Shown in pieces: positions 3,855 through 58,812 of a stretch of DNA of 64,000 nt. Source of the DNA: Pyrinomonadaceae bacterium. GTDB taxonomy: Bacteria > Acidobacteriota > Blastocatellia > Pyrinomonadales > Pyrinomonadaceae. The stretch spans positions 12,869 to 76,868 of the forward strand of contig DASZEN010000028.1 in the NCBI GenBank assembly GCA_035940775.1, given 5' to 3'. Position numbers and translations under genes: made by a program. Positions within the stretch are counted from its first letter, which is position 1. Each line of letters starts with the position of its first letter. The notes beneath the pieces are model-generated. The model was not told the DNA's origin and searched no databases. It saw only the letters and a program-made list of their open reading frames with translations.

Positions 3855-5376
3855 ACCACCACCGGAGCATCTTCCACCAGAGGGGGCCGAGGCTCATCCA
3901 GATCGAGATGTTGAGCAGGGAGACGACGAGGCCGAGCCACCACCACGTTCGTTGGTTGACGTAGCCCGCGCCGAACCAGATGGGCGCGGGCGTCGTTCCG
4001 TAGTGCGTCAGCGAGGCATCCAGGTTCGAGAAGTAAGCGAGCGAGAGTACGGCCAAGTAGGGCGGCGCACCGCTCGCGAGGATGACGACCAGGAAGGGCG
4101 TGTACATCGCCGTCGCATGGGCCGTAATGCTGGCGAACGCGTAGTGCGCGTAGAAGTAGACGAGCAGTAGCGCCGAGAGCGCGGCCCACCACGTCCACCC
4201 GTAAGTGAGACCGGCAGCCGTCTCCGCAAATCGTTTCGTAATTCCCGTTTCGCCCAGCGCCTCGGCCATGCGCACCAGCCCTCCATACCAGATGAAGACA
4301 TCCCACGCGCCGCGCTCCGCGATCACATCTTCCCAATCGAGCACTCTCGTCAGCAGCAGCACGCAGATACCAAAGAGCGCGACGACCGCGTAATGAACGG
4401 CACCGACGCGCCCGCCGGTCAAATACGCCAGCCGGTCGCCGATTATCCAGAGCGTCGCCACGATGCCGAAGACCGCCAGCATTACTTTCTCGGGCCAGCG
4501 CATTGGGCCAATACGTTTGAGTTCTTCGGCGGCGAACTCCGCTGCGGCGGGCGTGTGTCTGATCTCAGGCGGGAAAAGTCTATATAGCACGAGCGGCACG
4601 ACCAGAAGCGATGCCAGTCCGGGCACGATAGCGCCCAGGGCCCAACGGCTGTAGCTCAACTCGATGCCGGTCACCTGTTGCGCAAACTTCGCGATCAGGA
4701 CGTTCGATGCCTGGCCCGTCAGGAACATAGCGCAGACCACGACATCGCACTGGTAGAGGAGCACCATCAGGAAAGCTCCGAGCCGTCGGGCCGTCGCGCC
4801 CGGCTCGGACTCGTAAGCCTCCGCGAGGCTCTTGGCGATGGGGAAAATGATGCCGCCGGAGCGTGCGCCGTTCGAGGGAACGACCGATGCCAGCAGCATG
4901 TCCGTCGAGACGAGCGCGTAACCGAGGCCGAGCGAATGCCTGCCGATCGCGCGTATGAAAAGGAAGGCGATGCGCCGCCCGAGTCCCGTCTTAATCATCC
5001 CGCGCGAGATCATGAAGGCCGCCAGCACCAGCCATACGATCGGATCGCTGTAACCGCGAAGCGCATCGCCCACGGACATCGCGCCCGTCAACGCAAGCGC
5101 CGTCACCCCGAGCAACACCATCGCGCCGCCCGGCGCTGGCCGCAGGATGGAGCCGATGATGGTGGCGGCGAAGATCGCCAGCAGCCGCCACGATTGGGGT
5201 GCGATCCCTTCAGGAACGGGAGCAAACGCGATGGCTAAAGCGGAGGCCACGATAACGATCCACTTTATAATCCTGCTTCGGACGGCGGCGCGGCCCGCCT
5301 CATCAGTCTCGCCTTCGCCGTTCAAGGTAGCGGCGGCGACCGCCTCCTCCTCTTCCTTAGCGTCTCTGTCCGCCAT
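3853..5376 (-). CDS. DASS/anion-permease family transporter (dicarboxylate/citrate-type)
   Basis: 507-aa polytopic membrane protein. Two SN-hairpin motifs typical of SLC13/DASS carriers are present (VPSNGARSGGIIFPI and FSNLDASLTHYGTTPAP). Confidence 0.75.
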   Translation of the reverse strand: MADRDAKEEEEAVAAATLNGEGETDEAGRAAVRSRIIKWIVIVASALAIAFAPVPEGIAPQSWRLLAIFAATIIGSILRPAPGGAMVLLGVTALALTGAMSVGDALRGYSDPIVWLVLAAFMISRGMIKTGLGRRIAFLFIRAIGRHSLGLGYALVSTDMLLASVVPSNGARSGGIIFPIAKSLAEAYESEPGATARRLGAFLMVLLYQCDVVVCAMFLTGQASNVLIAKFAQQVTGIELSYSRWALGAIVPGLASLLVVPLVLYRLFPPEIRHTPAAAEFAAEELKRIGPMRWPEKVMLAVFGIVATLWIIGDRLAYLTGGRVGAVHYAVVALFGICVLLLTRVLDWEDVIAERGAWDVFIWYGGLVRMAEALGETGITKRFAETAAGLTYGWTWWAALSALLLVYFYAHYAFASITAHATAMYTPFLVVILASGAPPYLAVLSLAYFSNLDASLTHYGTTPAPIWFGAGYVNQRTWWWLGLVVSLLNISIWMSLGPLWWKMLRWW

Positions 5377-5508
5377 CTATCTCAGCCCCCGCGCTCCGCA
5401 AAAGTTTAAGAAGAGCATACGGCGGCGATACTACAGCTTTTTGAGCTTTATGCCTCGACGAAAATCGCCGGGCGGCCTCTTTTGATTTACAGGGGGGCGT
5501 CCGCTTCC

Positions 5509-5566
5509 ATAGAAAAGCGCGGGCTTCACACAAAACCCATCAGGGTCTTAGTTTGAAGCCCGCGCT
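5509..5566 (-). terminator. hairpin terminator downstream of 5726..6862 gene
   Basis: Perfect 13-bp stem AGCGCGGGCTTCA / TGAAGCCCGCGCT (5516-5528 / 5554-5566). On the minus strand it is followed by TTTCTAT. The loop is large (about 25 nt), so confidence is only moderate. Confidence 0.45.
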
Positions 5567-5725
5567 CTCTTGAAAGTAAGCGGTCTCGGGACGACTTACG
5601 AGCGGGTCTCTTTTTTAAGCCTGCGCCAATTTTTATGCGGTGAAGACTAAGAACGCGTCCTCCTGCGAAGGTTTCTCCGGGCAGGGGAGAGAGGCTGGGC
5701 GGAGGCGCTCAAAGTGTATGCCGCT

Positions 5726-6862
5726 CTAAAAGTGGCGCAGGAGCGGCGCGATGTCCGGCTGCGTGACGCTCAGCTTGATCTGGACTTCGTTATCCTGCGC
5801 CGTGACGGTCAGACCTTTGATAAGACTCGAAAATGCGTCGGCCTCAGCCTTGTTTGAGCCCCGGCCGATGCCCAGACCGCTGACGAGCTTTAGTCCGTTG
5901 AGCGCCTGGGCAATGTCGCGGGCCTGATCCGCATTCTCCGTGCGGGCGGCGAAGAGCGTTTCGGCGTTCGTCCCCACGGTGCTGAAAGAGCCGTAAACCT
6001 GCCGTATGGATTCGGCCAGCTTACTGACCTTAGCATCGCCGAACCCGAATCCCTTAGCCATTCCGGGCGGTACATTTCCAGCGAAGCCTGCGAAAGCGCC
6101 CGAAGTCCGCGTCGCTAACTCAACCAGGCTCTGGTCGACGCGCTCCGCGCCCGGATTGATGGTCGCGCGCACGCTCTCAAGATCGCCCATGACAATCGTG
6201 TTCGAGTCGAGTTCGGCGACGGCCATTCTTTGCGTATCGGCCTTGTCGGCCTTGAAGGCCGGAGCGCTGTCGCCAACACCAGCACCAGCGCCAGTACCAG
6301 CGCCAGTGCCAACGCCATCGCCGACGACGACGGCGGCGTCGGCGGCGACTACGTCGCGCGGTGAAGCCAGCACGTATATCTTCTTCCCTTCATAGACCTG
6401 CTCTTCGCGCTCGACCTTCTCCTTTTTCCTGACGGCCGCGAATCCTTTGTCGATCAAATCCGAGGCGACGAAGCTGCCGCGCGTGATGGCCACGAACCTG
6501 GAATGGCCGCTCCTTCGCGCCTGATCGAAGCGCAAGCCGATAGCGAGGCTGTCGAACGTGCGCGGGTCGATACCTGTCTCCTGCTGAAACTTGTCGAGCT
6601 TGGCGTTGATCTTCGCGAATAGAGTGGGGTCTCCGGCCAGAAAGTTCGGGAGCGTATCGGAGACGAGCTTCTGCGTGTCTACGAAGATGATGATGTCGGA
6701 TGCCGGAAGCTCGGCCAGCGCCGTGCCGGGCGCTACAACCGCCGCTCGGCTTGCAGCGTTAGTCTTCGCGACGACGCTCCGGCTCGCCTGGGCTACGATC
6801 AGGGCCATCGCCGCCAGCAGGATCGCCAGCGCGACGAGCGATGCTTGAAATCTCTTGTTCAT
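5726..6862 (-). CDS. secreted hypothetical protein (paralog A of tandem pair)
   Basis: 378-aa ORF with a signal peptide (LVALAILLAAMALIVAQA) and SD AAGAGG upstream. It is homologous end to end with the 7092..8135 product (LPASD..FVD.QKL..D.LP, RTFD..A.GLRF, ELATR, FA.NVPP). It carries a Gly-rich insertion, GDGVGTGAGTGAGAGVGD. Confidence 0.7.
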   Translation of the reverse strand: MNKRFQASLVALAILLAAMALIVAQASRSVVAKTNAASRAAVVAPGTALAELPASDIIIFVDTQKLVSDTLPNFLAGDPTLFAKINAKLDKFQQETGIDPRTFDSLAIGLRFDQARRSGHSRFVAITRGSFVASDLIDKGFAAVRKKEKVEREEQVYEGKKIYVLASPRDVVAADAAVVVGDGVGTGAGTGAGAGVGDSAPAFKADKADTQRMAVAELDSNTIVMGDLESVRATINPGAERVDQSLVELATRTSGAFAGFAGNVPPGMAKGFGFGDAKVSKLAESIRQVYGSFSTVGTNAETLFAARTENADQARDIAQALNGLKLVSGLGIGRGSNKAEADAFSSLIKGLTVTAQDNEVQIKLSVTQPDIAPLLRHF

Positions 6863-6987
6863 AATTTTTAACCTCTTAAATCTTCAAACAATCCTGGCCC
6901 CTTCTTAAAGAGCCTGCGGATTAATTCGGGGCCGATACTTCTCCTGCCCTGTAAAGACGACGAGGGCGCGACGACCGTTAACACGAA

Positions 6988-7018
6988 AGGCCATTTGTTC
7001 CTAAAGAACAAGTGGCCT
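6988..7018 (-). terminator. hairpin downstream of 7092..8135 gene
   Basis: AGGCCATTTGTTC ctaaa GAACAAGTGGCCT forms a 13-bp stem with one G-U pair. Only a weak T-run (TTCGTGTT) follows on the minus strand. Confidence 0.4.
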
Positions 7019-7091
7019 TATCAGTATTGCCCGGCTTCGGCTCGCATGGCAAGGGGGAAGTGACGCGCCCCCCGCTCCCGCGCGCCGCGCC

Positions 7092-8135
7092 CTAGAAAAT
7101 GCGTACCAGCGAGGCGATGTCCGTCTGAGCGATCTCCAAACGAATTTGCAGATCGCTCCCCTCGGTCGTCACCTTCAGATTGTCTATCACGCTCTGCGCG
7201 AGCTTGCCCTTGTCGGCCGGAAGCTGCGCGATCAGGAAGCCGCTGAACTGCCTCAGTGCGGCCAGCGAGTCGTTGAGGCTCCGTGCCTGCTCTGGCTTTT
7301 CCGTGTGCGCGACCATCAGCATGTCGAAGCCCGTGGCGGTCGTGCCGATTGAGCCGTAAGCCTGTCGAATCGAAGCGATGCTCCTGCTGATCTCCTCGTT
7401 GTCAATGCCGGAGGATTGGGCGACCGATGGCGGCACGTTGGCCGCAAAGCCTAAGATAGCGTTCGGATTGCGCGTCGCCAGTTGTACCAGCTCACCGCCG
7501 ATGCGCCCGCGTCCCTTGTGCGCATCGACCGCAGCCCGCACGACATCCAGATCGCCCAGCGCGAGCGTTTGCGCGTCGAGCGCCGCCACCGAAATGTCAC
7601 TCACCCGCATGTTCAAAAGCCCCAGCCACTTCATCCTGTCATTTACACTGAAGGTATAAATGGTCTGACCGGCATACTTCTGCTCCTGGTATTTGCCCTT
7701 CATGGCGATGCGCGCGGCGGCGATCATCGCGGGGGCATTGAAGCGACCCTGCGCGAGCGCGACGATGTCCGTGGTCACAACCGTCGGCGAGCGGCTGATG
7801 AAGCGCAATCCGACGGCGACGCGGTCAAACGTACGCACGTCCAGACCGTAGCGCGTTTTGAAGCTGTCTATGTCGGCATTGATCTGCGCCAGCCTCGGTT
7901 TATCTTCGGCGAGAGCGCGCGGCAAAGCATCATTCAATAGCTTCTGGACATCGACGAACATCGCCACGTCCGAGGCGGGCAGCGTCGGCAGCAATGCGTT
8001 GGCCGCCGGAGCCTGAGTAGTAGTCGTCGTCGCCGCCGTCGTCTTCGTCCTGGTCTGCGCGCTCGCAGCCGGAGCGATCAGGGCCGCGAGCGTGAGCCCG
8101 AGCATAATCAAAGAGGCGTAAATTTTCTTATTCAC
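7092..8135 (-). CDS. secreted hypothetical protein (paralog B of tandem pair)
   Basis: 347-aa ORF with a GTG start at 8135 preceded by AAAGGTGAG and a signal peptide ending AASAQT. It is collinear in similarity with the 5726..6862 product. Confidence 0.7.
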   Translation of the reverse strand: MNKKIYASLIMLGLTLAALIAPAASAQTRTKTTAATTTTTQAPAANALLPTLPASDVAMFVDVQKLLNDALPRALAEDKPRLAQINADIDSFKTRYGLDVRTFDRVAVGLRFISRSPTVVTTDIVALAQGRFNAPAMIAAARIAMKGKYQEQKYAGQTIYTFSVNDRMKWLGLLNMRVSDISVAALDAQTLALGDLDVVRAAVDAHKGRGRIGGELVQLATRNPNAILGFAANVPPSVAQSSGIDNEEISRSIASIRQAYGSIGTTATGFDMLMVAHTEKPEQARSLNDSLAALRQFSGFLIAQLPADKGKLAQSVIDNLKVTTEGSDLQIRLEIAQTDIASLVRIF

Positions 8136-10657: not shown

Positions 10658-12211
10658 ATGCTCGAACGCCTCACCGACAGGGACGAAATAGCAGACGCCG
10701 CGCGGCGCATCGATGAATTGATCGCGGCGCACGGCGAGTGGGTCTACGCTCAAGCGTCAGCGGGCGGCGCTACGACGGCGCTGCGACGAAATGAGATAGA
10801 CATTCACGTCTCGCAGAATCGCCTGATCTTCTCCTGCTGGACTGAGAAGGGCGTGCGCACGTGGCGCGTCAGGGCATGGGAATGGACGGGCGAGAAGCTC
10901 CTGATGGACGCGACGCGCCGCGCCGGGGCGGAGCGCTCCCGGCTCGTGCTCGTGCCGCGTCTCTCGACCGAAACAGCAAATATAATCATCAGCGCCGCGC
11001 GTCGTGAACGCGCGCAACATCTGGCGCGTCTCGCCTCGGGCGTGATTGCCGGAGCCGCGACGGTCGAGCGGACGGCGCTCAGCGCGGGTGCTCGGCGCGG
11101 CCTGCCCGGACGATACGCACGCATACTGCTTCGCCTGCCGCAAGAGCGCATCGCCGTCACAGGAGTAGTCGCCCCCTTTCAAGCATACGATGTCGACGCT
11201 TTTCTATCCTCCACACTCATCTGGTTTACGCGCGCCCGTGAGCGAGCGCGCTTACCCCCCATACGCAAACTCTGGCTCATCGCCGACCATCGTCACACGG
11301 CTGCGATAGCCGCGCGCCTCGCGCTCCTCAATGAAGACTTGCGGCGGTCTATCTCTCTGTTTGTGATTGATGATGAATGGCGCGAGCTAAGTCGAGCGTC
11401 CCCCTTAGAGCAGGAGGAGCTATGGACGGCACGGCCCGCGCGTCTGCTTCGGCCCTCAAAAATCGAGCCGGGCGAATGGGCCGCACGAATCGTAGCCCTC
11501 GCGCCCGGTGCGATTGACGTGGTGAGCGCGCGCCGTGGCGAGACGCTGCGCTATCACGGACTCGCTTTCGCGCGTGTGCGGCGTGTGATGAGCGTCGAGC
11601 GCGTGTGGTTCGGCGTCGCGGGCGCGCCGCGCCGTTTGCTGGACGAGAGCACGGCCGAAGACCTGGACAAACTCTTACGCCAGTTGATAGAGCACCGTCG
11701 CGCCGATGCTGTTGATCGCCGCCACGCGCTCTACAGGCTTGCGCCCGAAGCCTGGCTCGAATCCATGCTCAGGCGCGACATCACGCACCTCGACCCAGGG
11801 CTTATCCTCTCGCCTCTCTACGCGCAGTTTCGCGCCGCGCAGGAGGAGGTAGCCCGGGGCGCTGCGGCGGCGCGTCCCATCGACCTGCTGGCGCTCAGGC
11901 GCGACGGTCGTCTCGTCGTCATCGAGCTGAAGGTTTCCGAAGATCGCGAGCACGTCTTGCAGGCGGCAGACTACTGGCGGCGCGTCGAGGCGCACAGGCG
12001 TTGTGGCAACCTGCGGCGCGCGCGTCTATTCGGTGACGCTCCCATCGCAGATGAATCCCCGCTCGTCTACCTGGTCGCGCCGACGCTCCGTTTTCATCGC
12101 TCCTTCGCCACGTTGGCCCGCGCCATCGACCCAAGAATCGAAACCTATCGCTTCGACCTCAACGAGGACTGGCGCGCTGGCATCCGCGTCATGCGACGCG
12201 TTGTGACTTAA
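10658..12211 (+). CDS. hypothetical protein with C-terminal PD-(D/E)xK (RecB/Cas4/NucS-like) nuclease motif
   Basis: 517-aa ORF. The C-terminal block reads PIDLLALRRDGRLVVIELKVSEDREHVLQAADYW, giving D409, E423-x-K425 and Q435xxxY439. The roughly 400-aa N-terminal part matches no family I recognise and has no Walker motif. Confidence 0.6.
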   Translation: MLERLTDRDEIADAARRIDELIAAHGEWVYAQASAGGATTALRRNEIDIHVSQNRLIFSCWTEKGVRTWRVRAWEWTGEKLLMDATRRAGAERSRLVLVPRLSTETANIIISAARRERAQHLARLASGVIAGAATVERTALSAGARRGLPGRYARILLRLPQERIAVTGVVAPFQAYDVDAFLSSTLIWFTRARERARLPPIRKLWLIADHRHTAAIAARLALLNEDLRRSISLFVIDDEWRELSRASPLEQEELWTARPARLLRPSKIEPGEWAARIVALAPGAIDVVSARRGETLRYHGLAFARVRRVMSVERVWFGVAGAPRRLLDESTAEDLDKLLRQLIEHRRADAVDRRHALYRLAPEAWLESMLRRDITHLDPGLILSPLYAQFRAAQEEVARGAAAARPIDLLALRRDGRLVVIELKVSEDREHVLQAADYWRRVEAHRRCGNLRRARLFGDAPIADESPLVYLVAPTLRFHRSFATLARAIDPRIETYRFDLNEDWRAGIRVMRRVVT

Positions 12212-12219
12212 CACGTTAA

Positions 12220-12928
12220 GCGGCAATTTCGTGCGTCGCAGAAGAGGCCAGTTCAGCTCATCCTGGCGGCAATTGGCTCAATAACGAGCACTGGCGGGCG
12301 CGCGCGTGGCTTCGCGACCGGAACGATAAAACTGCCGGTAATAGTGAGCCGCCAGGCACAAGCTCCGACTCCATTTGTGTCAAATACTACACAGACTTGA
12401 ATGATTATTTGAAAGATACAGATACAGGTCTCGTCAGTTGTATCTCAAAATCGCAGGAAGGAAATATGGTTTACAGGCATGGCCTTCCATATAACTTTAT
12501 CTGAGGGCGACACCGGAAAATTATTATTGAAAAAGCTGGCAGATGGGGTTAGCATTAAGGTCTTCATTTACGACCCGCCAGCCTCAACGTACCGCTGGTG
12601 GCGCAACAGTGGGGCAGAGAAGACGCAAATCATCTGCTCAGAGTGATTGCCGCGACCGGCATTAATATCTAACCGAGCTTTACGCGACCTCTAAAAGTAA
12701 AAACCTTAAGAAGTATGTGGGAATCGAATTGGATGGAGAAATTCCTCAATCATGTCTCTACATTTTTGATCGCCATGACCCCGGTAGAGTTATACCAATT
12801 TTATTCCTCACGCGGGTCAAAACAGATCCACCGAACTGACCGGATATCTTTTCCGCAACGACGAATGTCGCGACGCTATTATTAATTTATGGGATGGCCG
12901 CGAAGAGGTGGGCGTCAATTACGTTTGA
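12220..12928 (+). pseudogene. multi-frameshifted gene relic (resembles the C-terminal PLD-like domain of XRE-family regulators, DUF5919-type, from memory)
   Basis: No ORF of 60 aa or more exists here, but protein-like segments line up consecutively in three frames. They are ...ICVKYYTDLNDYLKDTDTGLVSCISKSQEG.. / MAFHITLSEGDTGKLLLKKLADGVSIKVFIYDPPAST.. / KKYVGIELDGEIPQSCLYIFDRH.. / IPHAGQNRSTELTGYLFRNDECRDAIINLWDGREEVGVNYV*. At least three frame changes or stops separate them. Confidence 0.4.
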
Positions 12929-13163
12929 AGCATGGAAGGATAAACCGGAGAGCAGGGAATGGCTGGCAGGCGGAAACATTAAAACTCAATGAGCTGCGTG
13001 AAGATAGCGGTTAACATAGGCATTGCCTGTCAGTCCATTTTAGATGATTGCGTTTGAGCTTGCCTCTCTTTTACTCATCTGGTCTGTAACTGTTTCTCAG
13101 CAGTTCAACTCCGGCTCCCTCGCTGGTCGGCTTCTAACCATAACAAAACAGTGGAGGTGAGAT

Positions 13164-13688
13164 ATGAATTATATGGCACTGGGCTTTGTCGGGGCTGGCT
13201 TCTTTCTGTCACTTATCGCCTTTATCCTTAGGGGGTTGAAAGCCAGAATAGACTGGGGCCTTGATTGCAAGTACTATAGCCTGCTAGGTCTCTCCGTATT
13301 AGGAAGCGTTCTGGCTTTTATCGGGTTCCTGAAGTTCTCGCATGGGATTCCTGATAAGGTGGACTACACACAAACCCTTACTGTTATGGCTCTTCTAACG
13401 TCAGGGATAATTGCGGGCTACTTCAACTTTACTTTTGACCAGGCGGCCGATGACGAAAAGTTTTTCCCCTCCGCCCTCTCGATCTGCTTTATCCTACTGT
13501 TCCATCTGGTGTTCGCTGCCATCAGCTTTTACATAGGAAAGAGCGAGCGGATCCATGAGGTCGAAGGAGCGAACGTCATCGCTCCTCTAATCATGCTGAT
13601 CCTTCTGGTGGCAATTGCCGTGCGCGAATTCTGGGACTACCGGAAAGGCCCAGCGGCTGGCGGGTCAGCGGGCACGATCACCCAGTAG
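13164..13688 (+). CDS. hypothetical 5-TM membrane protein (island gene)
   Basis: 174-aa ORF with a strong SD TGGAGGTGA 4 nt upstream of the ATG. Five hydrophobic helices are visible. It is AT-richer than the surrounding genes. No family recognised. Confidence 0.7.
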   Translation: MNYMALGFVGAGFFLSLIAFILRGLKARIDWGLDCKYYSLLGLSVLGSVLAFIGFLKFSHGIPDKVDYTQTLTVMALLTSGIIAGYFNFTFDQAADDEKFFPSALSICFILLFHLVFAAISFYIGKSERIHEVEGANVIAPLIMLILLVAIAVREFWDYRKGPAAGGSAGTITQ

Positions 13689-13883
13689 CGCCTCTTTCAT
13701 CTTTTGCCTGCTCCCATCAATCGTGCGTCACGCGGGCGGTTACTTCAATTGGAGCTATAGACTTCAAGCGGGTGAAAGCAGTTTTTAGTAGGCCCTCGTA
13801 CGCGCCGAGCCTGCTCCTCATCAACCCATCGCGACCATCGGCCAGCGCCTGAGAGGCCGCCCTTACCTGGAGGTGACCACACA

Positions 13884-15884
13884 ATGCAGACGAAATTGCA
13901 CTTGCTGTCTATGCCCTGGGCTAACCCGGAGTTGCCCTCGATTCAAACCGCAGTCCTCAAGTCATATATAGACTCCGTGCTGGGCGCGCGGGTCGTGACT
14001 CGAACGTATTCTGCCTTTGCCAGCATCCTGCTCGAACAGAATCACGGCGGCTACGTGGACTACTACGACAAGTATCAGGCCTTTGAGGAATACCCGTACT
14101 TCCTCATGTACTACAGACGTTTCCTGCCAGCCGACCGGCGACTGAGCCGCATCTCTGCCGAGAGACTGATAGAGAAGATCAATGACCGCGATACTGACTC
14201 GCCGCTCAGCTTGCGAAGAATCGCGCGCCTGGAAAACCGTACGCAACGTTACATAAGGGAGACCATAGCCCCCCAGTTGTCCCGGCGTGGCCTCAATGTT
14301 ATGGGCTTTACCCTCAACTACTATCAGCTCTATGCCTCGCTTTACTGTGCGCGATATTTGCAGGAGCGCTTCCCGGACTACAGGTACCTGTTTATCTTCG
14401 GCGGGGCGACCGTTATTTATCCGAAGGTGGCCGAGGTCTTGAAAGTTCTGGGAACCGAGGGCCTCTGCGTCATCGGCGAGGGCGAACATAAGCTGGAGCT
14501 TATTCTCAGAGAGATTCTGGCGACGCCTCCCGACAACTCGAATTTGATGGAGCGTCTGTCGTCGCTGCACGAAGGCATTTATGAGATACAACGCCGCACC
14601 ATCAACCTGTATGAGCCGACCCCGGCTGCGCTGCTCGACATGCAGATGCCTATGGAGAAGCTGCCGCTGCCGGATTTCGACGAGTACTATGCATCGCTGC
14701 GCGAGGTCTTTCCTGATAGCAGGCTGCACGCGAAATACAAGTCCGAGACGTGGCTCGCGCTTGAGGGGACGCGCGGCTGCTTCGCCCATTGCGATTTCTG
14801 CGACGTGCATACGAGCTGGTCTGGTTTCCGCAAGAGCACGCCGGAGCGAATCCTCGACAACGTGTCGGAGTTGACGCGCAAACATAAAAGCCCCAGGGTC
14901 AAGTTCATGGATAACGTATGCGATACGTGGGCGGAGAAGTACGCCGAACTTCTGATTGAACGCAAGTGTCGAATCACGTCCTTCATGGAATGCCGCGTGC
15001 ATCATCCGGAGGTCTTCTGGACGAAGCTCTCATTATCGGGCGTCGAACTCGTTCAGGTAGGCATAGAGGCGCTCTCCCCGACGCTGATACGTGCGATGAA
15101 TAAGGGTACGCGGGCCAAGCAGAACCTGCTCGTACAGAAGTGGCTCAAGGAACTGGGAATAGAATCTCTCTCGAATATCATCACCCACCACCCGAAATCG
15201 ACTCTCCGGCACGTCGAGGAGACGAAGCAGGTTATACGCCTGATACCGCACCTTGATCGCTTGTATTTCTCACCGCTGGCGCTACTCATCGGCAGCCCCC
15301 TGGACGAGCGCCTGCACCCGGAGGAAAAAAGGGAGTTGGAGGAGCGACAGCTTTTCGACTTGCCTAAGAGTTTAGACAAGTATTTCGTCCTCAAGGGCGA
15401 GTATGAGCCGCCCGACGATTGGTTCGACAGGGGAGTATCTGACGCCTGGGATAGGCTGGTCGAATGGGGCGAAGATTTTTTCCAGACCGCAGGCGAGGAG
15501 GCTTTTATGACCTCCACGCGTTACGGCCCCGAAGAGGTGATGATTAGCGACGGGCGCTACGGCAAGGTCGAGAAGTATTATCTGGCGGGCGACAGGGCAT
15601 GCATATACGACCTTTGCCATCAGGGGGCGACGATGGCGACGCTCAGCAGCCGCACGGAACTGCCGCCGACAACGATTGAAAGGAATCTGTCCTGGTTGAT
15701 GGATAGGCGATTGCTGGTGGAGTTGGACGGATTCTACATTGCGCTGGCGCTCAGACCGCGCGACGAACTAATACACAATTACGTCGAGCTGGCAACTCCG
15801 AAAAACTCGCCGCCGCCTAAAGTCATGGGGCTTTCGCTGCCGGTACATCAGGGCATGGAGACTGCGGGGGCCGGGCAACAGTAG
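13884..15884 (+). CDS. radical SAM enzyme with N-terminal B12-binding-like domain and C-terminal PqqD/RRE-like domain (RiPP-maturase-like)
   Basis: 666-aa ORF with the same SD TGGAGGTGA. The canonical cluster is LEGTRGCFAHCDFCDV, with C299-x3-C303-x2-C306. The N-terminus (LHLLSMPWANPELPSIQTAVLKSYI) and FRKSTPERILDNV...VKFMDNV resemble the bacteriocin/RiPP maturation rSAM family (TIGR03975-like, from memory). The C-terminal YYLAGDRACIYDLCHQGATMATLSSRTELPPTTIERNLSWLMDRRLLVELDG looks like a PqqD-type peptide-recognition element. Confidence 0.85.
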   Translation: MQTKLHLLSMPWANPELPSIQTAVLKSYIDSVLGARVVTRTYSAFASILLEQNHGGYVDYYDKYQAFEEYPYFLMYYRRFLPADRRLSRISAERLIEKINDRDTDSPLSLRRIARLENRTQRYIRETIAPQLSRRGLNVMGFTLNYYQLYASLYCARYLQERFPDYRYLFIFGGATVIYPKVAEVLKVLGTEGLCVIGEGEHKLELILREILATPPDNSNLMERLSSLHEGIYEIQRRTINLYEPTPAALLDMQMPMEKLPLPDFDEYYASLREVFPDSRLHAKYKSETWLALEGTRGCFAHCDFCDVHTSWSGFRKSTPERILDNVSELTRKHKSPRVKFMDNVCDTWAEKYAELLIERKCRITSFMECRVHHPEVFWTKLSLSGVELVQVGIEALSPTLIRAMNKGTRAKQNLLVQKWLKELGIESLSNIITHHPKSTLRHVEETKQVIRLIPHLDRLYFSPLALLIGSPLDERLHPEEKRELEERQLFDLPKSLDKYFVLKGEYEPPDDWFDRGVSDAWDRLVEWGEDFFQTAGEEAFMTSTRYGPEEVMISDGRYGKVEKYYLAGDRACIYDLCHQGATMATLSSRTELPPTTIERNLSWLMDRRLLVELDGFYIALALRPRDELIHNYVELATPKNSPPPKVMGLSLPVHQGMETAGAGQQ

Positions 15885-16104
15885 CTTGTCTCTCTTCGGT
15901 CATCTCACGGACGCAACCTACATCAGATCGCTTTGAGGATGAGCATTGATCCCTGCCCGCAAACTGTTTTCCTGAAGCGGAACAGGAAGGTGAACATCAC
16001 GCGCGATGCGGAGAGGGACGGGCGTGCGTGCCTGGAGGGCTCGGCTGCCAGAGTTTTATCGAGGCGGGTTTGGAGGGCTCTCTCTCGGATTGCTGTGAAG
16101 TGTT

Positions 16105-16686
16105 TTAGCGCCAGTCGGGGGGCTCTGCCGGGGGCACGTAGGCGGTCTCCAGGTCGTTCGAGGATAGCTCCTTGAACCGGCGCGAGACGGAGGCGGGGCC
16201 GAGCTTGCGGCGCAGCAGGCTACGGAAATTCGTCTCCTGATCGACGGCTGTAAAGGCGCGCTTCGGTATCACGGAGATCATGCCTTTGCCGTACACCAGC
16301 ACATAGAAACTCTCGTTTTCGAGCACCCTGTTGTAGAGGCTCCAGTTGAGGCGGGAGTCAAGCTGATCGGTCTTGAAATGGATTCCTTCTTCCGTGAACT
16401 CAAGGGAATATTCGTCCCGATACTTGGGATCGCTGCGGAATCGCTGGCGCGGAAAGATGAAGAAGAGCGCCAGCACGAAGGTAAAGAGAACCAGGCCCAT
16501 GCTCAACAGGAAGAGCGACATGACGACCTCGTTGATCGCGGCGAAGAGGACGAAGGCCAGCGCGAGAAGCATAAAAGCCACGCCGAAGCGGAGCAGCAGA
16601 CCGGGTTGACCTGTGATGTAGAGACGCGTCGCCGCGACCCATTCCTTCTCGGTATATTTGAAACGAAGGCGGACTGTTTCATCCAT
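16105..16686 (-). CDS. YcxB-like membrane protein
   Basis: ORF 16105..16713. Start placed at MDETV (16686), which has GGAGGG 8 nt upstream. Two adjacent TM helices are followed by a soluble domain ending ...VIPKRAFT, the YcxB-family pattern. It lies 4-30 nt downstream of the pilT stop and is probably co-transcribed. Confidence 0.6.
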   Translation of the reverse strand: MDETVRLRFKYTEKEWVAATRLYITGQPGLLLRFGVAFMLLALAFVLFAAINEVVMSLFLLSMGLVLFTFVLALFFIFPRQRFRSDPKYRDEYSLEFTEEGIHFKTDQLDSRLNWSLYNRVLENESFYVLVYGKGMISVIPKRAFTAVDQETNFRSLLRRKLGPASVSRRFKELSSNDLETAYVPPAEPPDWR

Positions 16687-30853: not shown

Positions 30854-33800
30854 ATGAAAGAATGTCCAGCTTGTCGACGCTGTTTTCCTGACCACGTCAA
30901 TCACTGCCCGAACGACGGTGATGCGACCGTGCATTCGATTGCGGGCGAGCCGATGCTCGACGGGCGCTATCAATTGGAGCGACGGCTCGGACACGGCGGC
31001 ATGGGCGTGGTCTTTCAGGCGCGTCACATCTTTCTCAAAACCGCTCACGCCATCAAGGTGATCCTGCCCGATCTGGTCGGCAACGACCCGATGCTGGTCA
31101 CGCGCTTTCGCCAGGAGGCGCTGGCGGCCGCCGCCATTCGCCACCAGAACATCATCGCCGTCACGGACTTCGGAGTGGCGCGCGGCACTATGCCCTTCCT
31201 CGTCATGGAGTTCGTCAAGGGCAAATCCCTGCACGACATACTGGCCGCCGAGGGGCCGCTCTCGCCCGCCCGCGCTTTAGAGATCATGGCGGCCGTCGGC
31301 TCGGGCGTGGCCGCCGCGCACCGTCAGAACATAGTTCATCGCGATTTGAAGCCCCTGAATATTATGCTTCAGGACGATATGCCGGTGAACGAGGGCGTCA
31401 AGGTTCTGGATTTCGGACTTGCCAAGATCAAGTCGGGCGAACTGCTCGGCTCGTTCGTTCAGGCGAAGACGAGCGGGCTGATGGGCTCGCCCTTCTACAT
31501 GGCTCCCGAGCAATGGTCGGATGAGGAGCCGGACGTTCGCGCAGACATCTACTCTCTGGGCGTGATCCTTTACCAGATGCTCGGCGGCGACGTGCCCTTC
31601 AAGGGCACAGGCATCCCCTCGATCATGAAGAAACACCTGACGAGCGCGCCGCCGACGCTCTCTTCGATGGGCGTGAGCGTCGCGCCGCAGATCGAGGCCG
31701 TGGTGCGTCATGCGCTCGAAAAGGATGCCGACAATCGCCCGCAGACGGTCGAGGCTTTCGTCGCGGAGCTGCGCGACGCCGTGGCCCAGACCTCGGCCTC
31801 GCTCGACCGCACCTACGTCGGGACGGTCGGCGTGCAGTCGGAGACCATCATCACCACCACGCCGTCGCGCCCGGCCATCTCCAGACCTCCGCAACATCAT
31901 CAGGAGACGACCCTAAGCATTCGCACGTCGCCCGCCTACTCGCGCGTCTATATCAATAACGTCTCCGTTGGCAAGAGCGATGGCTCGGGCCAACTGGTCG
32001 TTCAGGAAATCCAGCGCGGCGTGCATCGCGTGCGCGTCGTCCATGACGGCTACGCCGAGTGGGAGGGCCAGATAGAGTGCGACGGCGGCGAGTGTCGCGT
32101 CGATGCCGAGCTGCAAAGCCTGATGCAGACGAGTTTGCCGCAGTTGTCGGGCGATCAACTGGCGGGCACGATCACGGGCGCGCCCGACCAGATGCCGACC
32201 TCCTCGCACTCCATCGAAGCGCAGCGCTTACGCGCGCAGGCCGCAGCGCTCGAAGAGAAAGCGCGCCAGGAAGAGGCCGCGCGGCGTGAGCAGGAGCGCC
32301 GCGAGCAGGAGCGGCGCGAGATGGAAGAGCGCGACCGCATCGCTCGCGAGGAGATCGCGCGCGAAGAGGAAGCGTGCCGCGTCGCCGAAGAGGAACGCCT
32401 TCGCCTCGAAGCCGAAGAGCGCCGGAAGGCCGAGGAAGAGGAGCGACAGCGCGCCGCAGAGGCCGAACGTCTGCGGGTTGAAGAGGCCGAGCGTTTGCGC
32501 GCCGAAGCCGAAGCCGCGCGTAAACAGGCGGAAGCTGAAGCGCAAGAGCGTAAGCGACTGGAAGAAGAGCGAAAGCGGGCCGAGGCCGAAGCACGCGAAC
32601 GCGCCGAAGAGGAGAAGCGCCAGCGCGCCGAAGAGGAGGCCGCCCGCCGCAAGGCCGAAGAGGCGGCATCGCAAAAGCGCGCCGAGGAGGAGAAGCTCCT
32701 GCGTGCCGAGGCCGAGGCCGCGCGCAGGCGCGCCGAAGAGGAATCCGTCGCGCGCAAGGCCGCCGAAGAAGAGGCCGCTCGATTGCGCGCCGAGCAGGCG
32801 ACACGCAAGAAGGCGGACGAAGAGAGAGATCGCAAGCGCGCCGAAGAGGAACGCCTGCGCGCCGAGGAAGCAGACCGTCTTCGCGCCGAAGCGGAGGCCG
32901 CACGCAAGCAAGCGATAGCGGAAGCGCAAGAGCGCAAGCGCATCGAAGAGGAGCGAAAGCGGGTTGAAGCCGAAACGCAGCGTCGCATTGAAGAGGAACG
33001 AAAGCGCGCCGAGGCCGAAGCGCAGCGTCGTCTCGAAGAAGAGCGCCAGCGTTTAGAGAAAGAGAGGCTTGAGCGCGAGGAGAGGGAACGCGCCTCGGCT
33101 GCGGAGCGCGAACGTCTCGCGCGCGAGCTGAAAGAGCGTGACGAACAGATGGCGCGCATGGCCGCGACCAGCATCGCGCCCGATATGGACGCCACCCAGC
33201 AACAGCGGCGCGGCGTCGTCACCCAGCAGATGGGAGAAAACAGCCTCTCCGACGCCACCGTAGTGCCCTCCTGGCAGCAGCAACAGCAGCAGCAGAGCCA
33301 CCCCGGCCTGCATCAATCGGTCGCGCCGCCCTACGCTCCGGCAGAGGCTAAGAAGTCTTCGATGCCGATAATGCTGATTGCGGCGGTGCTCGCGCTGGTC
33401 GTCGCGGGCGGCGGCATCGGCGCCTATTTCATGCTCAGCTCCAAGCCCGCCGCCAGCGATCAGACGACACTGAAGACAGACCCGTCCAAGACCGGCGGTG
33501 GGACGAACAACTCGGATCAGAAGAGCCCCAGGGCAGAGATGATCGCCATTCCCGGCGGGACATTCCAGATGGGACGCAGCGACGGCCCCGCCCAGGAAGC
33601 TCCCGCTCATTCGGTCACCGTCAGTGATTTCCTGATGGATAAGACGGAAGTCACCAATGCCGAATACGCCGAGTTCGTCAACGAGACCAAGCGGACTCCG
33701 CCGAGCCATTGGCCCGAAGGCAAAGTACTTGCAGGGCAGGAGCAGTGGCCCGTCAATAACGTCTCGCTGGATGATGCCAAGGCGTTTGCCGCCTGGCGCT

Positions 33801-34219
33801 CAAAGAGAGATGGCGTAACGTACAGGTTGCCGACGGAAGAGGAATGGGAGTACGCGGCCCGAAACGGCGATCAGGGTAATCTATACCCGTGGGGAAACTC
33901 CTGGGCCAACGACAGCGCTATCGTCAAAGCGGTTTCGCCGCAGAGCGTGGGCACCATGCCGAACGGGAAAAATCGTTGGGGAGTACTGGATTTGATCGGC
34001 AACATCTGGGAGTGGACATCGTCGAAGGCTTCGATCTATCCAGGTAACGGAAGGCTGTCGGTTCCGGATCAGGACAAGGACTCGTATGTGATGCGAGGCG
34101 GGTCATACGCGAGCGAGCCTTCGGGAGAGCGCGCGATCACGGCGACGTTCCGCGACTGGGTTCCGGCGGCGACGAAGCATCCGACTCTGGGCTTCCGACT
34201 CGTGCGTGCCGGTTCCTGA
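30854..34219 (+). CDS. Zn-ribbon / Ser-Thr protein kinase / PEGA / long E-R-K-A helix / TM / FGE-sulfatase-domain protein
   Basis: 1121 aa. Domains in order: N-terminal MKECPACRRCFPDHVNHCPNDG; kinase motifs HRDLKPLNIM, DFGLAK and YMAPEQ; a PEGA-like segment (LSIRTSPAYSRVYINNVSVG...VHRVRVVHDGY). About 300 aa of E/R/A/K repeats follow, then Q7 and a TM helix (MPIMLIAAVLALVVAGGGIGAYFML). The C-terminal FGE/SUMF1 motifs are RLPTEEEWEYAAR, GNIWEWTSS and RGGSY. Confidence 0.9.
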   Translation: MKECPACRRCFPDHVNHCPNDGDATVHSIAGEPMLDGRYQLERRLGHGGMGVVFQARHIFLKTAHAIKVILPDLVGNDPMLVTRFRQEALAAAAIRHQNIIAVTDFGVARGTMPFLVMEFVKGKSLHDILAAEGPLSPARALEIMAAVGSGVAAAHRQNIVHRDLKPLNIMLQDDMPVNEGVKVLDFGLAKIKSGELLGSFVQAKTSGLMGSPFYMAPEQWSDEEPDVRADIYSLGVILYQMLGGDVPFKGTGIPSIMKKHLTSAPPTLSSMGVSVAPQIEAVVRHALEKDADNRPQTVEAFVAELRDAVAQTSASLDRTYVGTVGVQSETIITTTPSRPAISRPPQHHQETTLSIRTSPAYSRVYINNVSVGKSDGSGQLVVQEIQRGVHRVRVVHDGYAEWEGQIECDGGECRVDAELQSLMQTSLPQLSGDQLAGTITGAPDQMPTSSHSIEAQRLRAQAAALEEKARQEEAARREQERREQERREMEERDRIAREEIAREEEACRVAEEERLRLEAEERRKAEEEERQRAAEAERLRVEEAERLRAEAEAARKQAEAEAQERKRLEEERKRAEAEARERAEEEKRQRAEEEAARRKAEEAASQKRAEEEKLLRAEAEAARRRAEEESVARKAAEEEAARLRAEQATRKKADEERDRKRAEEERLRAEEADRLRAEAEAARKQAIAEAQERKRIEEERKRVEAETQRRIEEERKRAEAEAQRRLEEERQRLEKERLEREERERASAAERERLARELKERDEQMARMAATSIAPDMDATQQQRRGVVTQQMGENSLSDATVVPSWQQQQQQQSHPGLHQSVAPPYAPAEAKKSSMPIMLIAAVLALVVAGGGIGAYFMLSSKPAASDQTTLKTDPSKTGGGTNNSDQKSPRAEMIAIPGGTFQMGRSDGPAQEAPAHSVTVSDFLMDKTEVTNAEYAEFVNETKRTPPSHWPEGKVLAGQEQWPVNNVSLDDAKAFAAWRSKRDGVTYRLPTEEEWEYAARNGDQGNLYPWGNSWANDSAIVKAVSPQSVGTMPNGKNRWGVLDLIGNIWEWTSSKASIYPGNGRLSVPDQDKDSYVMRGGSYASEPSGERAITATFRDWVPAATKHPTLGFRLVRAGS
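32483..32984 (+). repeat. internal coding duplication (384-nt register) inside kinase E/R/K/A region
   Basis: The copy starting near 32483 encodes EAERLRAEAEAARKQAEAEAQERKRLEEERKRAEAEA. The copy near 32867 encodes EADRLRAEAEAARKQAIAEAQERKRIEEERKRVEAE. The CGT of the RLRAE motif sits at 32492 and 32876, exactly 384 nt apart. Confidence 0.8.
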
Positions 34220-58736: not shown

Positions 58737-58812
58737 TGGAGCCACCTTGCGGACTTGAACCGCAGACCTGTCGATTACGAATCGACTGCTCTACCAACTG
58801 AGCTAAGGTGGC
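58737..58812 (-). tRNA. tRNA-Thr: tRNA-Thr (anticodon CGU), CCA encoded
   Basis: The minus strand reads GCCACCTTAGCTCAGTTGGTAGAGCAGTCGATTCGTAATCGACAGGTCTGCGGTTCAAGTCCGCAAGGTGGCTCCA. It has a 7-bp acceptor stem, D-arm GCTC/GAGC, anticodon stem GTCGA/TCGAC with loop TTCGTAA, and T-arm TGCGG/CCGCA with TTCAAGT. Confidence 0.95.

Follow-up and report, generated by a model that had tools for sequence, protein, structure and literature searches.

A putative trans-acting radical SAM enzyme from a sister subfamily of RiPP maturases, encoded alone in Acidobacteriota

The DNA analysed here (the window) is a stretch of 64,000 nucleotides from a Pyrinomonadaceae bacterium (contig DASZEN010000028.1, positions 12,869 to 76,868), and its subject is a gene for a 666-aa radical S-adenosylmethionine (rSAM) enzyme, called the query below, that resembles enzymes maturing RiPPs (peptides made by the ribosome and modified after translation). 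An earlier note on this DNA, made from its letters alone, had described the gene as an orphan whose substrate is either encoded elsewhere or hidden in an unannotated micro open reading frame (micro-ORF), unless the enzyme and a neighbouring membrane protein together do something not yet described. The first of these alternatives proved to be the best remaining reading. With moderate confidence we propose a functional class-B-type rSAM that putatively modifies a peptide or protein encoded elsewhere; it would act in trans because the substrate gene is not adjacent.

The radical SAM gene and its solitary clade

Positions without a prefix refer to the window; L numbers denote related loci fetched for comparison and P numbers homologous proteins. 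The gene and its parts are as follows.

13841..13883 (+): conserved ribosome-binding region of the rSAM gene (TTGGAGGTGAC; alignment A5)
13884..15884 (+): rSAM gene, 666 aa, ATG start
13884..14693 (+): N-terminal domain, residues 1 to about 270, predicted Rossmann-like fold of the cobalamin-binding-domain type plus linker (AlphaFold2 model, Foldseek)
14754..15383 (+): radical SAM core, residues ~291-500 (Pfam PF04055 and AlphaFold2 model)
14778..14801 (+): CxxxCxxC [4Fe-4S] motif, C299/C303/C306, invariant in 47 homologues
15504..15794 (+): C-terminal beta-sheet and winged-helix domain, residues 541-637 (AlphaFold2 domain model, predicted local distance difference test score (pLDDT) 94.8)
15795..15884 (+): variable C-terminal tail and stop codon, predicted disordered, unconserved in the alignment

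About 200 homologues of the enzyme were found, and an alignment of 47 of them fixed the start of the gene. The N-terminal sequence MQTKLHLxSMPW is kept in the homologues, and 13884 is therefore the true start; a GGAGGTG Shine-Dalgarno (SD) sequence precedes it and is likewise kept in relatives. The public Joint Genome Institute (JGI) call for the contig (Ga0334906_000073; P0001) starts 31 codons late and gives a protein of 635 aa, so that the product as annotated is missing the strand MQTKLHLLSMPW, which is conserved at the N-terminus and encoded within 13884-13976. The CxxxCxxC cluster at C299, C303 and C306, to which the earlier note had pointed, is present as described and is covered by the Pfam Radical_SAM match (PF04055, residues 295-449, E 2.9e-14, 54 bits against a cutoff of 29.5). 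All of the residues that are invariant in the subfamily (26/26) are retained in the query, and the frame of 666 codons is intact. The ratio of non-synonymous to synonymous substitution rates (dN/dS) against L001 was 0.12 at a dS of 0.64, and it ranged from 0.07 to 0.18 in other comparisons, where dS approaches saturation. The value of 0.12 indicates that the gene is functional and not decaying.

For the clade to which the query belongs, more than 15 independent loci with rSAMs that are 54-86% identical were examined. By annotation they come from Pyrinomonadaceae, from Blastocatellia, from other Acidobacteriota and, in one case, from an 'Eremiobacteraeota' metagenome-assembled genome (MAG). No conserved neighbour of the rSAM gene was found in the window, L001, L004-L012, L018 and L022-L027 beyond the local synteny of very close genomes, and in L013 and L062 (43-48% identity) the gene is likewise solitary. 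In a neighbour-joining tree rooted on a TIGR03975 member (see below), the query clade is terminal and nested in branches with members from RiPP clusters; the solitary state is therefore derived. The query clade is thus a derived, stand-alone lineage under purifying selection, and the orphan status first noticed in this single stretch holds for the acidobacterial clade as a whole.

Comparison of the related loci also confirmed that the rSAM gene has no convincing precursor ORF at its side. No ORF of at least 30 aa within 5 kb was common to these loci besides the rSAM, the membrane protein described below and ORFs confined to close genomes in synteny, and downstream of the rSAM gene nothing at all was common to them. 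Equally, no conserved reading frame runs through the conserved non-coding DNA at 13053-13163 and 13841-13883. A 38-codon ORF at 13044-13160 is not conserved, because alignment A4 of the 110-bp leader contains an indel, and most of this leader is absent in L004. The 55-aa ORF called by JGI at 12479-12646 has no counterpart in any related locus. Elsewhere, the 64-kb window consists of ordinary acidobacterial chromosomal DNA, in which neither a C39 exporter nor a RiPP protease is encoded.

Some further observations concern the surroundings of these solitary genes. Just downstream of the rSAM in L012 (12161-12328) lies a 55-aa ORF (MGNLGLGYLASVLRKEGYKVEVLDF...) resembling the N-terminal fragment of another B12-binding-domain protein. 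The window encodes a 1121-aa Ser/Thr kinase-PEGA-FGE-sulfatase fusion at 30854-34219 (+), and a 1286-aa TIR-nSTAND-FGE-sulfatase fusion adjoins the orphan rSAM of L013 (2829-6689). That both fusions contain an FGE-sulfatase domain is probably a coincidence.

Family placement, domain architecture and RiPP-cluster relatives

The query aligns over almost its whole length with the NCBIfam model TIGR03975 (rSAM_ocin_1, 'RiPP maturation radical SAM C-methyltransferase'; model positions 2-606 of 606 to residues 6-623, E 1.7e-60), scoring 205.2 bits against a curated cutoff of 281.85. Nine further subfamily members (31-68% identity) scored 177-222 bits. The positive control was P0120, the most distant homologue at 30% identity, which reached 361.5 bits and is a true member. 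As its score lies under the cutoff, the query belongs to a sister subfamily of TIGR03975 that has the same architecture and is covered by no curated model. The kinship to RiPP maturation rSAMs proposed in the earlier note is therefore supported by the full-length alignment and by relatives in RiPP clusters, but it stops short of family membership. TIGR03975 itself is presumably the PoyB/PoyC type of proteusin pathways. A search of one literature library for TIGR03975 returned mentions and no characterisation of the family.

An AlphaFold2 model of the rSAM built on 47 homologues had a pLDDT of 91.7 and a predicted template modelling score (pTM) of 0.89. Its N-terminal domain contains a helical insertion of ~90 residues (about 44-131), an invariant G173/G174 pair and an invariant GEGE at 198-201. 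The best matches of the model in the Protein Data Bank (PDB), searched with Foldseek, were OxsB (5UL3), MgmA (9CCB), TsrM (6WTE), CysS (9N1D) and TokK (7KDX), five cobalamin-rSAMs matched with E values of 3e-17 to 8e-12 over 520-780 alignment columns. AprD4, which has the same fold and no B12, was matched as well, and the set including it spans E 3e-17 to 7e-11. As modelled, the query thus has the fold that marks class B rSAMs, a cobalamin-domain-type N-terminus before the rSAM barrel. No SPASM/twitch Cys motif was detected in the query by Pfam or NCBIfam; outside the rSAM triad, the conserved cysteines are limited to C346 and C578.

The C-terminal domain is conserved throughout the subfamily and lies within the TIGR03975 model. 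In the AlphaFold2 model its order is b1 b2 b3, a1 a2 a3, beta-hairpin, a4; in numbering of the domain model, the strands E7-13, E16-21 and E28-33 and the helices H34-45, H49-56 and H60-72 are followed by the extra hairpin and helix. The pLDDT of tail residues 641-666 falls below 50. A profile search of 1.84 billion representative proteins matched the domain in 148 clusters (50% identity) at E <= 1e-10, almost all of them C-termini of 620-690-aa rSAM-type proteins or fragments, together with some other winged-helix proteins. Pfam gave sub-threshold winged-helix matches only (TrmB, MarR, IclR, HVO_A0261_N), and the best 50 PDB matches listed by Foldseek were all generic winged helix-turn-helix (wHTH) folds at E >= 6.7e-3, among them the T4 MotA activation domain, IclR/PcaR, Sso10a, MarR and O-methyltransferase dimerisation domains. 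In the model, the domain is a winged helix with a strand and helix order compatible with RiPP recognition elements (RREs), and this order makes a role in peptide docking a reasonable proposal. The winged-helix profile also recurs in P0195, P0217, P0241, P0215 and P0234, proteins of 346-1330 aa with 5-10 tandem stretches of it that are unrelated to the rSAM family.

More distant subfamily members, at 34-44% identity, adjoin precursor-like ORFs, paralogous rSAMs and genes for MNIO, JmjC and C39-ATP-binding cassette (ABC) proteins. Judged by this gene context, they are RiPP tailoring enzymes. The loci are the following, with the identity of their rSAM to the query.

L014 (41%): C39-peptidase ABC exporter, HlyD-type protein, rotamase, two query-family paralogues, a third rSAM, S9 peptidase; a 52-aa ORF has a double-glycine leader (…KLEIKDLGGKEVDKQETRKVKGG/VRVICYSGGSSGGVKPK)
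L033, L034, L044 and L051 (39-41%): the L014-type precursor family recurs beside the rSAM
Members of this precursor family: L014:6763-6921; L033:2752-2913; L034:10407-10550 (-); L044:179-289 (-); L051:116-265 (-)
L003, Sorangium atrum JAQNDK010000001.1, 1007-7983 (42%): RiPP-like cluster
L063:4523-13172 (44%): a 47-aa ORF (MAKKTKQKKRIKKKSDCGLTTSTTTTIGGRPVSTTKKIVNPGVNNQI), three tandem ~670-aa rSAMs, two JmjC/cupin-8 proteins and an ABC transporter nearby
L015 and L016 (34-35%): further RiPP-like cluster variants

Peptides of the recurring precursor family are ~45-53 aa long. They are rich in Lys at the start, contain a KLxIKDLxGKxV motif and the double-glycine site KVKGG, and have a short core that reads VRxICYS...SGGVxP[KR] or KPRxTCLSGRK. 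Found beside subfamily rSAMs, this KVKGG family looks like an uncharacterised RiPP class; L014 and L033 each hold a pair of rSAM paralogues. The L003 cluster combines a JmjC protein, an MNIO (MbnB/TglH family) with a 214-aa partner, a glycosyltransferase, a 2-oxoglutarate (2OG) oxygenase and the subfamily rSAM with a 57-aa tandem-repeat precursor peptide (PKPAASAHVCRHDPTP x2).

Two other loci deserve mention. In L020/L021 (6139-12724), P0120 lies between an overlapping gene of unknown function (286-296 aa) and two dynamin-like GTPases, with no obvious precursor. L045 (104-7600) contains a tandem duplication of ~3.6 kb comprising a truncated subfamily rSAM of 457 aa and its three neighbours.

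The upstream membrane protein and the low-GC island

Directly upstream of the rSAM gene, the window carries the following features.

12250..13052 (no strand): AT-rich stretch without a credible gene, left part of the low-GC island, 45-48% GC by composition profile
13053..13163 (+): conserved upstream leader of the module, probable promoter/5' untranslated region, SD GGAGGTGAGA; homology to L001 starts here
13164..13688 (+): ORF for the 174-aa membrane protein, directly upstream of the rSAM
13689..13840 (+): window-specific intergenic insertion of ~150 bp, without counterpart in L001 and L004 (alignment A5)

The earlier note had reported an uncharacterised protein with five transmembrane (TM) helices here. 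The gene is indeed present; its hydropathy profile shows five hydrophobic segments, four of them strong and one weaker, and the count is therefore better given as four to five. The strict pairing of the two genes proved to be confined to the closest relatives: the membrane gene is immediately upstream and on the same strand in 5/5 independent loci with an rSAM of at least 73.5% identity (the window, L001, L004/L018, L022 and L023), but no copy turned up in any locus where the rSAM is 70% identical or less. Its family comprises 10 clusters among 5.8 billion proteins, several of them on contigs that match in length the contigs bearing close rSAM homologues. The gap between the two genes measures 22-50 bp in relatives (~22 bp in L001, ~32 bp in L004). 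The membrane protein shows a dN/dS of 0.37, a weaker constraint than that on the rSAM, and contains an invariant FWDYR motif after its last TM helix, beyond which the tail is unconserved. Searches against Pfam, NCBIfam, PADLOC and the PDB yielded nothing above the noise of hydrophobic matches (E >= 0.001). The core function does not require the membrane protein, since most of the clade does without it; it is a recent lineage-specific accessory that is not key to what the enzyme does.

Several identities for this protein were considered and rejected. A weak Hpre_diP_synt_I match had hinted at an energy-coupling factor (ECF) S-component or transporter, and proved to be noise in a PDB profile search and in Pfam searches member by member. 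The C-terminal tail was rejected as a core peptide for its lack of conservation beyond FWDYR. A role in a defence system was likewise set aside, neither the rSAM nor the membrane protein having a PADLOC match.

The pair travels as a module. DNA homology between window positions 13053-15854 and L001 positions 5315-7977 delimits a two-gene unit of 2.8 kb with unrelated flanks, and in L001 an integrase and a DyP-type protein lie upstream of it. In the window, the pair sits in a low-GC island from 12250 to ~15900 with 45-58% GC, against 63-68% outside. The AT-rich stretch at 12250-13052 (~800-900 bp) contains only short unconserved ORFs and is similar to no fetched locus; it may be left over from an element with which the pair arrived. 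The insertion at 13689-13840 is unique within the window by blastn and has neither an Rfam match nor a terminator-like hairpin. A repeated mobile element was thus rejected for both the insertion and the AT-rich spacer, each being unique. Neither did an upstream riboswitch or other RNA survive inspection, since an Rfam scan of 12000-16300 at E <= 1 returned one chance microRNA match, and the search for flanking repeats or att sites of the island gave only short chance repeats.

Just left of the island, the window encodes a 517-aa protein (10658-12211, +) that has no Pfam match; its C-terminal region weakly matches the PADLOC candidate defence family PDC-S11 (E 6e-8) and a NucS endonuclease (E 0.06). 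The sole tRNA of the window, a tRNA-Thr (CGT) at 58737-58812 (-), is far from the island.

Weighing the readings and comparison with known systems

In the mechanism that we propose, the [4Fe-4S] cluster would reductively cleave SAM to a 5'-deoxyadenosyl radical, which would take a hydrogen atom from an unactivated carbon of the peptide or protein substrate. The N-terminal domain, probably with cobalamin, would hand over a methyl group, or other C-C chemistry might take the place of methyl transfer, as it does in BipD or OxsB. By analogy, the likely reaction is C-methylation or the making of another C-C bond by radical chemistry. The C-terminal winged helix is likely a docking module and would bind the recognition segment of the substrate. 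In the innermost sub-clade, the rSAM would be co-transcribed with the 4-5 TM accessory, which might be a membrane tether or serve export or immunity. We thus infer cobalamin use, the chemistry, the class of substrate and the function of the C-terminal domain.

A number of results weigh against this reading. The three-part architecture set out in the earlier note agrees with the AlphaFold2 model and its cobalamin-rSAM matches, but the N-terminal domain of the query has no Pfam B12-binding (PF02310) match at E <= 1. That profile matches 1/47 subfamily members, at E 0.002; in L063, two of the three tandem rSAMs match it, which counts in favour of the proposed reading, and the third, the query homologue P0049, matches only Radical_SAM. 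Cobalamin binding by the query is therefore no more than probable, and the fold alone does not decide it, since AprD4 has the fold without B12. Nor can methylation be assumed: it is one among several chemistries known from enzymes of this type, and the rSAM BipD forms a biaryl bond instead of methylating (PMC12707348). The C-terminal segment that had been read as a PqqD-type RRE is present, conserved across the family and folded in the model as a winged helix with RRE-compatible order, but the PqqD label was not supported: PqqD (PF05402) matched 0/33 subfamily members at E <= 0.1, hhalign of the domain against an alignment of eight real PqqD proteins from annotated plasmids gave 7.8% probability over 27 columns, and among the 50 Foldseek PDB matches listed no entry is named PqqD or RiPP enzyme. 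The domain could equally be a structural or dimerisation module, a role made conceivable by the O-methyltransferase dimerisation wHTH domains among its fold matches. On the substrate side, tblastn with five precursor types of the related clusters found none in the 64-kb window or the acidobacterial loci, and none of the 99 intergenic small ORFs of the window, judged by eye, is leader-core-like. Membership of TIGR03975 is itself no guarantee of a RiPP cluster, given that P0120 is a true member without an obvious precursor, and one group discarded antiSMASH calls from the TIGR03975 rule as likely false positives (PMC9426513).

These points leave room for other explanations. In the main rival, which we regard as rather unlikely, the clade would have left its RiPP cluster and been re-used on some normal protein of the cell or on a different non-RiPP substrate, for example an intermediate of lipid or cofactor metabolism. 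Re-use has a parallel in the B12-rSAMs Mmp10 and MgmA, which methylate methyl-coenzyme M reductase, and MgmA (a protein glutamine methylase) was the fourth-best fold match of the query. It would also suit an rSAM that is solitary in at least 15 loci with unrelated neighbours and is yet held at a dN/dS of 0.07-0.18, near which no RiPP export or protease genes were found in the window. However, the query branches within a group of RiPP-cluster enzymes and has lost none of the subfamily-invariant residues, those of the C-terminal domain included, and its variable genomic locations and low-GC island suggest a mobile accessory gene, not a housekeeping one. Moreover, RiPP precursors whose genes lie apart from those of their maturases are familiar from NHLP/Nif11 systems, as reportedly described by Haft in 2010. 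A self-contained two-gene system, in which the membrane protein is the substrate or recruits the enzyme to a membrane component, seems to us improbable. Strict same-strand adjacency in the five independent loci of the inner sub-clade, joint transfer of the pair as a 2.8-kb module, a membrane family that occurs nowhere else and the invariant FWDYR motif all speak for it. Nevertheless, rSAMs at 54-70% identity lack the membrane gene, so the membrane protein cannot be the general substrate; moreover, this protein has an unconserved C-terminal tail, is under weaker constraint (dN/dS 0.37) and could be matched to no family, whether of transporters, ECF S-components or any other kind.

Much less credible still is a precursor in an unannotated micro-ORF beside the rSAM, an alternative of the earlier note that comparison has effectively excluded. 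The 55-aa ORF of the gene caller and several short ORFs in 12250-13160 offer candidates for it, but none of them is conserved in L001, L004, L018, L022 and L023 and they are unlike the precursors of the related clusters. Similarly, the gap at 13689-13883 is mostly window-specific insertion and shrinks to ~22 bp in L001, and the indel in the 110-bp leader breaks the frame. Least likely of all is that the gene is a relic of a vanished cluster, in decay and now without function. An isolated gene in a low-GC island, with ~900 bp of gene-less AT-rich DNA alongside, would look the part, but the selection analysis (dN/dS 0.12) effectively refutes it, as do the intact 666-codon frame, the 26/26 invariant residues and a solitary state conserved in many genomes. 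A trans-acting enzyme with a peptide or protein substrate encoded elsewhere is therefore the reading that we retain.

Some of the most difficult reactions in the biosynthesis of peptide natural products are catalysed by class-B rSAMs, few of which have known substrates. The analysis defines a sizeable subfamily that current curated models miss: one branch has an obvious candidate precursor family, and the acidobacterial branch, which is widespread in soil, has lost all of its cluster context yet is still held under strong selection. For genome mining, rules keyed on such rSAMs will call 'RiPP clusters' without a precursor. The clade offers a tractable case for precursors encoded in trans, or for re-use of a RiPP enzyme on another target. 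It is conceivable, if somewhat speculative, that a RiPP rSAM lineage has been domesticated in Acidobacteriota (Pyrinomonadaceae/Blastocatellia) as a solitary, horizontally mobile modifier of a non-RiPP target. That target might, with no greater likelihood, be a cellular protein or, in the inner sub-clade, the private membrane partner. If true, the domesticated rSAM would be to bacteria what the B12-rSAMs that modify methyl-coenzyme M reductase are to archaea.

Among known systems, the TIGR03975 family stands closest to the query, sharing its length and its three-domain architecture including the C-terminal winged-helix domain. Relatives sit in RiPP clusters, often as paralogue pairs like PoyB/PoyC (PMC11285071); the query, by contrast, has no adjacent precursor, and its methyltransferase activity is putative. 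Its motif is the canonical CxxxCxxC, whereas PoyC was reported with Cx7Cx2C (PMC11285071). OxsB, TsrM, TokK, CysS and MgmA share the N-terminal Rossmann-like domain and the rSAM barrel with the query, but at only 12-16% identity and TM-scores (fold similarity) of 0.39-0.50; the query has in addition the ~90-residue helical insertion, and a winged helix replaces their C-terminal domains. Like the query domain, PqqD-type RREs consist of three strands followed by three helices and are fused to a peptide-modifying enzyme. PqqD also shows a local motif likeness (L-x-G/N-x-x-A-x-I-x-x-x-C-x-G), whereas the query domain has an additional canonical beta-hairpin wing and a fourth helix.

The other instructive comparison is with BipD, a B12-dependent rSAM to which biphenomycins owe their biaryl bond and which measures 628-640 aa against 666 aa for the query (PMC12707348). 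The bip cluster consists of an MNIO with its partner, a JmjC hydroxylase and the B12-rSAM, and the same enzyme set surrounds the subfamily members in L003, L016 and L063. The enzyme set of L003 is thus like that of the biphenomycin cluster, although its core peptide differs and holds Cys. BipD is annotated as containing a B12-binding domain and the query is not, and we liken the two by size and cluster content. Set against these systems, the query is not a new kind of system: it represents a subfamily that is sister to a known family of RiPP rSAMs, and it combines a solitary way of life, which is derived, with a membrane partner of its own.

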